DNA of 64,000 nt from Spirochaetia bacterium (GTDB lineage: Bacteria > Spirochaetota > Spirochaetia > UBA9216). Location: the NCBI GenBank assembly GCA_965140585.1, contig OZ223269.1:576001-640000 (forward strand), given 5' to 3'. Made by a program: the position numbers and the translations under genes. Shown piece after piece: positions 6,497-58,041 of this stretch. Position 1 is the stretch's first letter. Each line of letters begins with the position of its first letter. The notes beneath the pieces are model-generated. The model ran no database searches and had not been told where the DNA came from. It saw only the letters and a list, made by a program, of their open reading frames with translations.

Positions 6497-7777
6497 ATGG
6501 AAACTATGGTACTTGCCGGCCTGGCAGTTCTTTTTCTGGTAATAGGGGTTCCGATAGGAATCTGTTTCGCAATAGGAATGATATCAGTCGCATTTCTTTT
6601 TGATGTGACAAGTTTGAAGTTTATAGCCCAGTCGATGTACTCAGGACTGGATTCGCTTCCGCTGCTTGCCGTTCCCTGCTTTATTCTTGCAGGCGCTATT
6701 ATGGAAAAGGGCGGACTCTCAAGGAGGCTTATTAATGCTGCAAATAAATTCAGCGGCGGAACAACAGGCGGACTGGGGACAGTAGTAATTCTTGCCTGTC
6801 TGTTCTTCGGGGCGATATCAGGGTCAGCACCCGCCACTGTAGCTGCAATTGGAACCATAATGATTCCGCATATGCAGAAAGCCGGATACGATCGGACCTG
6901 GTCCACGGGCCTTGTAGCTGTATCAGGGAGCCTTGGGGTAATCGTTCCGCCAAGTATACCGCTGGTTGTCTACGGCTGCGCGACGAACACATCAATCGGA
7001 GATCTTTTTCTGGCAGGCGTTGTTCCAGCAATTGTGGAAGCCGGTGTATTGATTGTAATAGCTAAAATAGTTTCCTGGAAAAAGGGGTACAAGGGCAGCG
7101 GTGAAAAATCATCGGTGAAAGAAATTCTTTCCGCCTTATGGGAAGCCAAGTGGGCTCTGATAATGCCGGTAATTATTCTTGGAGGAATTTACGGAGGAAT
7201 ATTCACTCCGACTGAAGCGGCGGTAGTTGCCATCGTCTATGGAATTATTATAGGAATGTTTGTTCATAAGGAACTTAAGTGGAAGGATCTGCTTAAAATC
7301 TTTAATGAAAACGCTTCATTTATCGGCGGTATCATGCTGACTTTTGCCCCGGCTGCGGCTTTGGGCGGAGTGCTTGCAATGCTTGGAATACCGGGAATGA
7401 TAAGTGATCTGCTGCTTTCAGTAACGGACAATCTGATTGTAATTCTATTGATAATTAACGTCTTTCTGCTTCTCGCAGGAATGGTTCTTGATACCATGTC
7501 TGCAATAATTGTATTCGCTCCTATTCTACTTGCGGTTCTTCAGCCTCTGGGGATAGATCCTATACATCTTGGAATAATGATGACTGTTAATCTTGAAGTC
7601 GGGTTTGTTACACCTCCTGTTGCGCTGAATCTATTTGTAGCCTCGGGAATGACAGGAATCCCAATGGATAAAATAGTTTCGAAGGCGCTGCCTTTTATTA
7701 TTGGACTTTTAATAACACTTCTTGTTATTACATTTGTGCCCGGGCTTAGCTCCGGCGTTGTAGAACTTTTAAAATAA
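6497..7777 (+). CDS. dctM: TRAP transporter large permease DctM
   Basis: LLAVPCFILAG, FGAISGSAPA, IVPPSIP, GIFTPTEAA, TPPVALNLF. Confidence 0.93.
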   Translation: METMVLAGLAVLFLVIGVPIGICFAIGMISVAFLFDVTSLKFIAQSMYSGLDSLPLLAVPCFILAGAIMEKGGLSRRLINAANKFSGGTTGGLGTVVILACLFFGAISGSAPATVAAIGTIMIPHMQKAGYDRTWSTGLVAVSGSLGVIVPPSIPLVVYGCATNTSIGDLFLAGVVPAIVEAGVLIVIAKIVSWKKGYKGSGEKSSVKEILSALWEAKWALIMPVIILGGIYGGIFTPTEAAVVAIVYGIIIGMFVHKELKWKDLLKIFNENASFIGGIMLTFAPAAALGGVLAMLGIPGMISDLLLSVTDNLIVILLIINVFLLLAGMVLDTMSAIIVFAPILLAVLQPLGIDPIHLGIMMTVNLEVGFVTPPVALNLFVASGMTGIPMDKIVSKALPFIIGLLITLLVITFVPGLSSGVVELLK

Positions 7778-55906: not shown

Positions 55907-56440
55907 ATGAGTAGAGAATTTATTCTTGATGATGCTATAAGAAAGGTTCCGGATTTTCCCCATGAAGGAATACTGTTTTATGATATCACCAGTATTCTTA
56001 CCAATCCTGAGGCGTTCAGGCATTGTGTAGAAAGTATGGTGACCCTGTATAAAAATAAGAAAATTGATGCTGTTGCAGCCGCCGAAGCCAGAGGTTTTTT
56101 ATTTGCTGCGCCATTCTGTGAGAAGCTTGGTATTCCTTTGATTCTAATAAGAAAAAAAGGAAAGCTTCCCGGAGAGACTCTGACCAAAACTTACGCTCTG
56201 GAATACGGTGAAGACTCTATACAAATTCATAAATCAGATGTTGTCCCTGGAAGTAATGTTCTGCTTGTCGATGACCTGATTGCAACCGGCGGTACACTAA
56301 AAGCCGCCGCAGAACTGCTTGAAGAAGCCGGAGCAAAGGTTAATGAAGCATTCGGAGTTGTAGGGCTGCCGTTTCTCAATTATGAAAAGGTTCTTGAGGG
56401 AATAAATATAACAACCTTAATAAATTACCATAGCGAATAG
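55907..56440 (+). CDS. apt: Adenine phosphoribosyltransferase
   Basis: PDFPHEGILFYDI, EARGF, RKKGKLP, LEYG, VDDLIATGGT. Confidence 0.96.
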   Translation: MSREFILDDAIRKVPDFPHEGILFYDITSILTNPEAFRHCVESMVTLYKNKKIDAVAAAEARGFLFAAPFCEKLGIPLILIRKKGKLPGETLTKTYALEYGEDSIQIHKSDVVPGSNVLLVDDLIATGGTLKAAAELLEEAGAKVNEAFGVVGLPFLNYEKVLEGINITTLINYHSE

Positions 56441-56442
56441 TA

Positions 56443-56471
56443 TTGACACTAACTATCAATTTTAGTAGATT
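56443..56471 (+). promoter_or_regulatory. sigma70 promoter of the tRNA locus
   Basis: TTGACA-17 bp-TAGATT ending 15 bp before tRNA-Gln. Confidence 0.65.
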
Positions 56472-56485
56472 ATGGCAACATAAAT

Positions 56486-56556
56486 TGCCCGATTGTGTAA
56501 TGGTAGCACGACGGATTCTGGTTCCGTTTGTGAGGGTTCGAGTCCTTCTCGGGCAG
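56486..56556 (+). tRNA. tRNA-Gln (CTG)
   Basis: Acceptor TGCCCGA/TCGGGCA, anticodon arm ACGGA-TTCTGGT-TCCGT, GGTTCGAGTCC T-arm; no encoded CCA. Confidence 0.95.
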
Positions 56557-56559
56557 TCT

Positions 56560-56764
56560 AACAAAAGCTGCTATGCAGTTTTTGTTTTGAAGTTTACATG
56601 GTAAACTTCATGGGGTGAGCATGGTAGCTCATTTCTGCAGTTTATTTTTTAAACTGCACCAATTTCCTTTGTTTTTCAGCTTTTGCTTAAAGTTTGTTTA
56701 ACAAACTTCCGGATAATTTATGGATGTTTCCGTAGGAAACTCCAAAAAAATCCTAAGGATTTTT
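56560..56764 (+). other. Tandem array of 7-8 short hairpins filling the tRNA-Gln/tRNA-Glu spacer
   Basis: 8-12 bp stems, mostly 3-nt loops, G-U pairs compatible with the + strand only; see findings. Confidence 0.65.
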
Positions 56765-56765
56765 C

Positions 56766-56837
56766 GGTCCCTTCGTCTATCGGCTAGGACAGGAGATTCT
56801 CATTCTTCAAAGAGGGGTTCGATTCCCCTAGGGACTA
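56766..56837 (+). tRNA. tRNA-Glu (CTC)
   Basis: Acceptor GGTCCCT/AGGGACT, anticodon loop TTCTCAT, GGTTCGATTCC T-arm; no encoded CCA. Confidence 0.95.
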
Positions 56838-56840
56838 AAA

Positions 56841-56867
56841 ACCGGCTTTGTTTGCCGGTATTTTTTT
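56841..56867 (+). terminator. Terminator after tRNA-Glu
   Basis: ACCGGC-TTTGTTT-GCCGGT followed by A-T7. Confidence 0.7.
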
Positions 56868-56874
56868 AAAGAGT

Positions 56875-56913
56875 AATGTATAAATATACATAAATTATGT
56901 ATATTTATAAATC
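56875..56913 (+). promoter_or_regulatory. Tandem ARG boxes (ArgR operator) upstream of carA
   Basis: AATGTATAAATATACATA-AAT-TATGTATATTTATAAATC: two 18-bp ARG-like boxes 3 bp apart. Confidence 0.65.
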
Positions 56914-56919
56914 AGGATT

Positions 56920-58041
56920 ATGACTATGAACAGAAACGGATATCTTGTATTAGAAGACGGAACAGCTTTTCCCGGCAGGTGCTTCGGTGCTGAACCCGGA
57001 CAGCTTGCAGAGGGTGAAGTTGTTTTTAACACCGGAATGAGCGGATATCATGAGATATTTACCGATCCATCATATACAGGTCAAATTGTAATGATGACAT
57101 ATCCGCATATCGGAAATTACGGTATTGATGAAGAATGGTCCGAAAGCGGACCTGAGGGTAAAGAGCGAAACCCGGTAAAGATTCGCGGCTTTGTAGTCAG
57201 ATCTGTATACCTCGGGTCGGTTCCCGGAAGTCGCGGCAGCATCGATGATTATTTCAAATCGAATAATATATCGGCTATCAGCGATGTTGATACAAGAGCC
57301 CTGACACTAAAGCTACGTGAAGGCGGAAGCCTAAAAGGCTGTATTATAAAAACCGATGGTACTGATGATAAGGCAGCCATTGAAAAGGCAGTTGCAGGAC
57401 TCAAGGCTATGCCTGATATGCAGGGGCAGAACCTGATAGGCGATGTCGGTACAAGTGAACGGCTTACAATAAACGCCGGGCAGAAAGTGAAGTTTGCTGT
57501 AGTTGACTGCGGAATCAAATCCAATATCATCACGGAGCTTACTTCACGCGGGGTCACCGTTGAGCTTTTTCCTTCAACCGCGAGTGCAGAGGAAATCCTT
57601 TCAGCTAAAACCGACGCTGTACTTTTCTCGAACGGTCCCGGCGACCCCGCAGTTCTAAAAGACCAGATTAAGCTGGTTCAGGACCTTTTCGATAAACTTC
57701 CGGTCTGCGGAATCTGTCTGGGGCATCAGCTAATATCTCTTGCTCTCGGTGCAGAAACCTACAAGATGAAGTTCGGTCATCACGGTATAAACAATCCTGT
57801 ACGTGACGAACTTACAGGACGGGTTTTTGTAACGAGTCAGAACCACGGATTTGCTGTAAAACAGGAATCGCTTCCTGAAGGTACCGACATCTGGTTCATG
57901 AATGCAAATGATAAAACAGTAGAGGGAATTATCAATCAGAAAAGAAATATTGCCTGCGTACAGTTTCATCCCGAAGCTGCACCTGGTCCTGAGGATACTT
58001 CCTGGATCTTTGATAAATACGTAGAGATGGCAAAGGCTTAA
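56920..58041 (+). CDS. carA: Carbamoyl-phosphate synthase small subunit
   Basis: [42 protein letters not shown]. Confidence 0.97.

Follow-up and report, generated by a model that had tools for sequence, protein, structure and literature searches.

The window analysed here is a 64,000-nucleotide (nt) stretch of a Spirochaetia genome (assembly GCA_965140585.1, contig OZ223269.1, positions 576,001 to 640,000 of the forward strand), and its subject is the 207-nt spacer between a tRNA-Gln and a tRNA-Glu gene (56559-56765 of the window, + strand, limits taken from the ARAGORN tRNA calls), which is tiled with short hairpins and which a first-pass annotation, made from the letters alone, had proposed to be a structured RNA co-transcribed from the tRNA promoter and excised by tRNA processing. 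Both tRNA genes lie on the + strand and neither encodes its CCA end; tRNA-Gln (56485-56558, anticodon CTG) scores 57.7 bits against the Rfam tRNA model and tRNA-Glu (56766-56837, anticodon CTC) 50.4 bits. A consensus scan of the + strand places a predicted sigma-70-like promoter (TTGACA-17-TAGATT, 10 of 12 matches) at 56443-56471, and a terminator scan predicts an intrinsic-terminator-like hairpin, ACCGGC...GCCGGT (56841-56859), followed by a T-run (whole feature 56841-56869); these were the sole promoter-like and terminator-like sites on that strand, with none within the spacer. The TTGACA...TAGATTA arrangement is also found 5' of tRNA-Gln, and the terminator is kept 3' of tRNA-Glu, in the loci of the bacterial family, a set of 11 genomes in which the window's own genome is G000 and its sister in the same genus is G001. 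One promoter and one terminator, both conserved and with no further site between them, are the layout of a single transcript, which would fit the proposed co-transcription from the tRNA promoter.

Read from its 5' end, the spacer begins with hairpin A (AACAAAAGCTGC-TAT-GCAGTTTTTGTT, 56560-56586; MFE, for minimum free energy, structure and inverted repeat I4), whose 12 pairs include one G.U and an A-run/T-run outer stem around a 4-5 bp G+C core (GCTGC/GCAG); it continues into TTTTTGTTTT, that is, with TTTT directly after the hairpin, and the terminator scan calls no site there. Hairpin B (TGAAGTTTAC-ATG-GTAAACTTCA, 56588-56610; I6) is a perfect 10-bp stem, and is followed by hairpin 3 (GGGGTGAGC-ATGGTA-GCTCATTTC, 56612-56635; in the MFE structures of both strands), with three G.U pairs that form on the + strand only, and by hairpin 4 (TGCAGTTTA-TTTTT-TAAACTGCA, 56636-56658; MFE structure and I3). 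A U-rich, mostly single-stranded linker (56659-56689), in which the MFE structure has a 3-bp AGC-TTTT-GCT stem (56678-56687), separates these from hairpin 6 (AAGTTTGT-TTA-ACAAACTT, 56690-56708; I7), which shares an AGTTT/AAACT core with hairpin 4. Hairpin C (TGGA(T)GTTTCC-GTA-GGAAACTCCA, 56721-56744; I5), with a bulged pyrimidine, precedes hairpin D (AAAAATCC-TAA-GGATTTTT, 56746-56764; I9), which stops 1 nt short of tRNA-Glu, so that each end of the spacer RNA, as predicted from the tRNA limits, would lie no more than 1 nt from a stem. As the first-pass annotation had described, all eight inverted repeats are present in the sequence, the inverted-repeat list and the MFE structure, and direct reading bears out the five 3-nt loops (TAT, ATG, TTA, GTA, TAA), the GTTT/AAAC core in four stems and the CATGGTA at two loops.

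The + strand folds at -70.9 kcal/mol into a chain of eight local hairpins, with z = -7.76 against dinucleotide shuffles and none of 200 shuffles equally stable, while the - strand fold (-66.1, z = -7.50) loses the pairs that are G.U on the + strand (one belongs to hairpin A, three to the GGGGTGAGC/GCTCATTTC stem), as had been noted at first sight. The spacer has 33% G+C against 42% for the genome. Perfect hairpins (stem at least 8, loop 3-7) number 0.28 per kb in the genome versus 4 in 210 nt of the spacer, a genome maximum shared with two other windows of that size. In a sample of 3,366 of the 23,433 non-overlapping 207-nt windows, all from contig C1, 62 windows reached -70.9; once G+C was regressed out, the energy of the spacer was 5.5 standard deviations lower than expected, versus -7.2 for the extreme of the sample, so the spacer is a strong outlier yet not unique in its genome. 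It is single-copy, with no second copy by blastn in G000. Of four sequencing runs compared as contigs, one carries the same spacer and another a shorter form like that of G001, and neither is independent. Degenerate tRNA genes were considered as a source of the spacer and rejected: ARAGORN called only the two flanking tRNAs, and no tRNA-model match was found in 56559-56765 at E <= 10.

Expansion and conservation of the spacer in relatives

The spacer between the two tRNA genes is 1-9 nt long in ten loci outside the clade (L017-L019, L021-L027), one of them from a genome of the same family (G002), versus 101-232 nt, with hairpin arrays, in 9/9 genomes of genera g1, g4, and g5 that have both tRNAs on one contig; the expansion is therefore lineage-specific. 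These nine expanded spacers, which come from related and mostly metagenome-assembled genomes, all fold better than their own shuffles (z from -3.5 to -11). In another genome (G003) the two tRNA genes are not linked, and a separate promoter-like site belongs to tRNA-Glu. A metagenome scan built on the tRNA-Glu 3' end plus terminator returned 13 contigs, ten of them with both tRNAs, and all ten spacers were short (1-46 nt), with none expanded. Three of these contigs carry a single hairpin between the tRNAs, which in L074 and L078 (46-nt spacers) is terminator-like with a T-run and in L077 (45 nt) has none.

The expanded spacers share an order: an A-run/stem/T-run hairpin at tRNA-Gln, hairpin B, variable hairpins, hairpin C, and the A/T-rich hairpin D, which stops 1 nt before tRNA-Glu. 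The A-type hairpin adjoins tRNA-Gln in six of the nine; hairpin B follows the motif GRAGTTTNN-NNN-NNAAACTYC, and hairpin C is a second copy of it with the bulged pyrimidine. Between G000 and G001 the 5' half has been rebuilt, in that whole hairpins differ: hairpin 4 is absent from the G001 spacer, and the outer stem of hairpin 3 is the outer stem of the first hairpin there. The last 100 nt are identical at 95 of 100 positions, with the linker at 56659-56689 almost identical and hairpins 6 and D identical, and A-run/T-run hairpins similar to D occur in G007, G008, G006, and G004.

For comparison, four-fold degenerate sites were counted in the flanking genes apt (55907-56440, upstream) and carA (56920-58041, downstream), named from their translations and gene order; the order apt, tRNA-Gln, tRNA-Glu, carA is common across the class. 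G000 and G001 agree at 182 of 248 such sites, and G000 and genus g4 at 55-59 of about 182 (~30%), i.e., at saturation. Against this background hairpin C retains 22 of 24 bases between G000 and G006. In the six orthologous genomes available for each, hairpin C has 59/60 cells paired with compensatory change in three of its ten pairs, and hairpin B 54/54 cells paired with compensatory change in four of nine, and their pairing beats nearly all shuffles and all slid controls. Structure is thus conserved with compensatory changes in orthologous Gln-Glu spacers, the covariation that had been named as a check on the initial proposal. The non-Watson-Crick pairs in these orthologues comprise five G.U and no A.C on the tRNA-sense strand, and hairpins A and 3 of the window add four more G.U pairs, which fits pairing in the sense RNA.

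Separately, an AT-rich palindromic stretch (ATGTATAAATATACAT plus its partner) occupies 56876-56912, 3' of the tRNA-Glu terminator and ahead of the carA start (56920). It matches its own reverse strand, stands at the same position in the family loci, has similar stretches in two other genomes of the class, and is a candidate operator for carAB.

The TD-type hairpin and its three-hairpin repeat

The first-pass annotation knew of no family with this layout, which has to be amended, because the GTTT/AAAC hairpin is the central stem of the Rfam family TD-2 (RF03162), with TD-1 in the same clan. Across the 11 family genomes there are 26 sites with the motif GRAGTTT-N7-AAACTYC and none with the reversed control, and among 151 genomes of the class the motif is confined to family members and one genome of another family, the reversed control matching nine genomes. 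Of the 31 distinct sites, 27 can form both inner pairs, and six different inner dinucleotides occur in these; two of the four non-complementary sites fall inside long open reading frames (ORFs). Some of the sites stand in rRNA operons, about 30 nt 3' of tRNA-Ala and tRNA-Ile; others are intercistronic or fall in tRNA spacers. G000 has six motif hairpins genome-wide, two of them in the spacer; a high-copy repeat was rejected for this genome, given these six sites, the lack of a second spacer copy by blastn, and no dominant stem word among its 983 perfect hairpins.

The intercistronic copies are instances of a three-hairpin repeat, some 100-120 nt long, for which blastn gives at least 49, 31, and 21 matches in G007, G009, and G006, two in G000 and none in G001. 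This repeat is TD-2: it scores 54-56 bits against a cut-off of 48.7, and the consensus middle stem is GAGUUU...AAACUC. Infernal at E <= 0.001 finds 31, 24, 16, 5, 4, 4, and 1 copies in G007, G009, G006, G004, G010, G008, and G000, respectively, i.e., in 7/11 family genomes and in none of 14 control genomes; canonical copies away from the Gln-Glu spacers score 49-67 bits. The near-canonical and canonical copies of G000 lie at C6:268615-268713, which passes the TD-2 cut-off at 54.1 bits, C2:266378-266486, C7:502026-502125, and C1:841155-841240; the two inspected (C6 and C2) stand directly 5' of a start codon with a Shine-Dalgarno-like AGGAG adjoining, and a further AGGAGG flanks the C6 copy at its opposite end.

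Repeat copies turn over as whole units. They form tandem arrays in G007, and at two orthologous loci an array of ~95-120 nt is present in some genomes where others have a bare junction of stop codon and Shine-Dalgarno sequence (L053 of G006 vs L114-L117 and L119; L051 of G007 vs L106-L110). At a canonical copy in G006, AGGAG(G/A) borders the 115-nt insert at either end, a possible target duplication, and four orthologues are without this insert; the AGGAG duplication is not clear at the second polymorphic locus, no terminal inverted repeats of the TD-type repeat were recognised, and nothing comparable to the duplication was seen at the tRNA spacer. Two ideas about the repeat were dropped. A small ORF was suggested by a 25-codon frame in one copy, but copy L060, read by eye, stops after five codons, and stems covary while loops vary; CsrA binding was suggested by GGA in the TD-2 consensus loops, and GGA is not conserved in the terminal hairpins of the spacers.

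How far the spacer itself belongs to this family depends on which part of it is compared. Hairpins B and C, the latter with its bulge, carry the TD-2 central hairpin GAGUUU-(variable top)-AAACUC, and GCAGTTTAAACTGC-type cores occur within enlarged middle hairpins of G007 repeat copies. The TD-2 flanking loops AUGGAU/ACGGAU, or their complements in TD-1 orientation, are not among the loops of the spacer (TAT, ATG, ATGGTA, T5, TTA, GTA, TAA), of which ATGGTA is only loosely similar. An nhmmer profile of ten repeat copies matches spacer positions 5-51, covering hairpins A and B in the repeat's order and spacing, weakly (E = 0.017 among nine spacers). The Gln-Glu spacers of G004 and G007 have full-length but sub-threshold TD-2 matches adjoining tRNA-Gln (30.2 and 24.9 bits) on the strand opposite to the tRNAs, which is the gene-sense (TD-1-like) orientation of the mRNA leaders. 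The spacer is not a canonical TD-2 element, since it fails the covariance model. Our reading is that the spacer is probably assembled from TD-type modules, including four middle-type hairpins, and that in G000 it would have diverged past recognition by the model.

Several further observations concern similar hairpins elsewhere. In G000, back-to-back hairpin chains fill two spacers of a Ser-Ser-Arg-Ser-Ser tRNA cluster (C7:482275-482387, C7:482463-482556), and a chain after the 16S rRNA end (C4:193268-193550) includes a AGAGUUUG-UUUA-CAAGCUUU stem with G.U on the sense strand. A low-copy composite in the same genome (C1:29094, C1:164067, C7:99818, and C9:212274; near variants at C9:25709 and C9:27439) begins, in three of its four exact copies, with a hairpin around an A5-CTGCAG-T5 core (at C1:164067 a different hairpin takes its place), followed by the linker ACCTTAGATTTAA and a long variable hairpin that C9:212274 lacks. 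The linker contains TAGATT, as does the second hexamer of the tRNA promoter; used as a motif with up to two mismatches it is noise (139 matches vs 179 for the control), and only exact or near-exact copies are notable. In two genera a small gene, presumably GxxExxY-like from its visible motif, is interrupted at the same place by a hairpin pair (L064:1430-1560 in G001, L052:1500-1800 in G006); in the first hairpin the left arm belongs to the coding sequence and the right arm repeats it in inverted orientation, the insert changes the reading frame, and in G006 another hairpin insert follows farther along.

Beyond the spirochaetes, the exact hairpin-C pattern occurs on 16 contigs of the species collection, two of them labelled as spirochaete. 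Between the tRNA-Gly and tRNA-Thr genes of a Clostridia-labelled contig (L093, reverse strand 7113-7188) stands TGGATGTTTAC-GAA-GTAAACTCCA with another hairpin, and GAAGTTTGC-TTC-GCAAACTTC lies between cistrons in that genome; on an Acidimicrobiia-labelled contig, hairpin C in its G007 form is 44 nt away from a tRNA-Val (further coordinates of these sites: L101:1001-1021; L099:1220-1243). A cross-phylum element was rejected, with 3/43 genomes positive in the order of the Clostridia genome and reversed-control matches in ten; lacking enrichment, the non-spirochaete hairpins would be coincidence, transfer or convergence.

Weighing the explanations

On balance we think it probable, if only just, that the locus is a co-transcribed spacer of TD-type hairpin modules, partly kept by selection and processed into a structured RNA. 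This explanation builds on the structure, its conservation and covariation, the kinship to the TD-type hairpin, and the operon layout described above, and from these it would predict transcription, processing, stability and perhaps some benefit of a spacer RNA. In an operon of two tRNA genes, running from promoter through tRNA-Gln, spacer and tRNA-Glu to terminator, the 207 nt would be an internal transcribed spacer, which in one clade of a Spirochaetia family would have grown from a few bases to 100-230 nt by uptake of TD-type palindromic modules. Modules would be gained, lost and reshuffled at the DNA level, with hairpins B and C and both end hairpins kept by selection for pairing on the tRNA-sense RNA. 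Each hairpin would fold locally during transcription, leaving little of the untranslated spacer single-stranded for Rho loading, and RNase Z (3' of tRNA-Gln) and RNase P (5' of tRNA-Glu) would release a 207-nt RNA that has a stem no more than 1 nt from each end. In the G000 genome (98.5% complete), searches turned up PNPase, Rho, and RNases Y, Z, and III, and no RNase E/G, RNase J, or RNase II/R (RNB family); with such a set of enzymes and stems at both ends, the spacer RNA should resist exonucleases, and it would either be long-lived or be removed mainly through cuts in its two single-stranded linkers (56659-56689 and 56709-56720).

A number of results weigh against this explanation. The best TD-2 alignment within the spacer (56675-56740, - strand) reaches 15.5 bits, with E = 6.8 in 226 nt and a cut-off of 48.7, an Rfam scan of 2.5 kb around the spacer gave no TD match at E <= 10, and the nhmmer profile match is not significant window-wide (E = 0.61); with similarity this low, descent from the repeat rests on the hairpin motif, the module order, and the sub-threshold matches in relatives. 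Canonical copies are few in G000 (one by Rfam, four by nhmmer) and absent from G001, so ongoing insertion cannot explain the conservation there. The shuffle controls overstate significance because each hairpin has only six, related, orthologues, and palindromes pair on either strand, as the - strand z of -7.5 illustrates.

If the RNA is released, it might be a dedicated trans-acting molecule, either a sponge for a factor recognising TD-type hairpins or a partner that pairs with other RNAs in the manner of 3'ETS-leuZ. We regard this as unlikely, although it gains from the sequestering of both ends in stems, from the conservation of hairpins B and C in sequence as well as pairing across saturated divergence, which points to a sequence-specific reader, and from the recurrence of the same hairpin in tRNA and rRNA spacers and in mRNA leaders; 3'ETS-leuZ is also a precedent for a sponge made from a tRNA-derived spacer (described in part of PMC8166272). 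A defined molecule would not, however, be expected to have its 5' half reshuffled between two species of one genus or to vary in length from 101 to 232 nt, and the relevant portion of the same review (PMC8166272) knows no stable internal spacer in bacteria. Alternatively, hairpin A or the whole array could act during transcription, as an attenuator or leaky terminator through which the amount of tRNA-Glu relative to tRNA-Gln is set. The G+C core of hairpin A with the tract after it, similar A-run/stem/T-run hairpins after tRNA-Gln in G004, G007, and G009, and the single hairpins in the 45-46-nt spacers of three unrelated metagenome contigs, with a T-run in two, all invite such a role. We still judge it improbable, since the terminator scan calls nothing in the spacer, G006 and G001 have no T-run after their first hairpin, strong termination would silence a tRNA-Glu that has no promoter-like site of its own, and one hairpin would be accounted for rather than eight.

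It could also be that the palindromes act as DNA, whether as sites for a dimeric protein, as cruciform or recombination sites, or as neutral footprints of a mutational process or mobile element. In this direction point the conserved outer stem GAAGTTT/AAACTTC, which is a perfect palindrome, the gain and loss of arrays as units, their tandem occurrence, the hairpin pair interrupting the GxxExxY-like gene of G001 and G006, with one arm coding sequence and the other its inverted copy, and loop sequences without fixed orientation in mRNA contexts. Yet the inner pairs covary (27/31), which a spaced operator does not need, G.U pairs form only on the tRNA-sense strand, no Y1/RAYT transposase was found in G000, G001, G006, or G007, and conservation at saturated divergence argues against neutrality; we therefore give a DNA role little credence.

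Returning to a spacer of TD-type modules that is transcribed and processed, one may speculate, as a long shot, that TD-type hairpins (GRAGUUU-top-AAACUYC) are the recognition module of a putative spirochaete RNA-binding or processing factor, and that the spacer is a domesticated four-module array which, freed by tRNA processing and resistant to exonucleases, titrates this factor. If true, titration would couple transcription of the tRNA operon, and with it growth rate, to the fate of mRNAs and rRNA precursors that carry TD-1/TD-2. The TD core hairpin is now placed in three kinds of transcript, i.e., tRNA spacers, rRNA spacers, and intercistronic leaders, for elements that have been orphans since 2007. 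A hairpin apparently held by selection on the RNA-sense strand while whole elements turn over narrows the question to what reads the GRAGUUU...AAACUYC stem; if the stem has no reader, the locus would be an ordinary safe harbour of a small selfish repeat. The locus also provides a naturally occurring internal tRNA spacer that is long and highly structured, in a bacterium whose genome was searched and yielded no RNase E/G, J, or R; in such a bacterium stems should dominate RNA stability.

Comparison with known systems

REP/BIME, ERIC, Correia, and BOX elements form mosaics of short palindromes in intergenic regions that are transcribed; their presence varies between relatives, and they are thought to be exonuclease barriers. 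TD-type elements resemble REP/BIME units and miniature inverted-repeat transposable elements (MITEs) in being clustered palindromic units that are present or absent between relatives (small palindromic repeats of the REP/BIME type are described in general terms in part of PMC3184786), and differ from REP/BIME in their low copy number in G000, AT-richness, and 3-nt loops. The tens to hundreds of near-identical units of a REP-like repeat were not found in G000, and a REP/RAYT system was rejected because the Y1 transposase domain (PF01797) has no match in G000, G001, G006, or G007 and matches only in G002, G004 (with stops), and G005.

Among RNAs cut from tRNA transcripts, rtT RNA, which derives from the tyrT operon of E. 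coli and has an Rfam entry of its own, gave no match in the Rfam scans of the spacer region. Together with the E. coli 3'ETS-leuZ, a tRNA-derived spacer acting as a sponge, it resembles the spacer in layout, as a non-tRNA segment of a tRNA transcript freed by processing, here predicted from sequence; the relevant part of the review that treats 3'ETS-leuZ reports no stable internal tRNA spacer in bacteria (PMC8166272). Both differ from the spacer in being RNAs that pair through single-stranded regions, as known or thought, or repeat-derived enterobacterial RNAs, with no likeness in sequence or structure. For the proposed stability a closer parallel is Borrelia, which, according to part of PMC10319736, has the same minimal RNase set and a PNPase blocked by 3' stems.

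The nearest known system is TD-2/TD-1 (RF03162, clan CL00124). In the part of the 2007 description by Weinberg et al. that concerns them, TD-1 and TD-2 come from Treponema denticola alone and have no known function, they partly overlap as reverse complements, and TD-1 lies mostly 5' of genes (PMC1950547); a search of one paper library on the two names turned up nothing beyond that description. Like the spacer they are spirochaete-specific and multi-hairpin, with the middle stem of hairpins B and C, and TD-2 occurs in many copies per genome, as in this bacterial family. Unlike TD-2, the spacer is without the AUGGAU/ACGGAU flanking hairpins, it has four middle-type hairpins in a row where TD-2 has one, and it stands between two tRNA genes rather than in an mRNA leader or free-standing. 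The spacer is, then, a peculiarity of one lineage, with hairpins of the type seen in a spirochaete repeat that is known but still an orphan, and it does not amount to an entirely new class of RNA.

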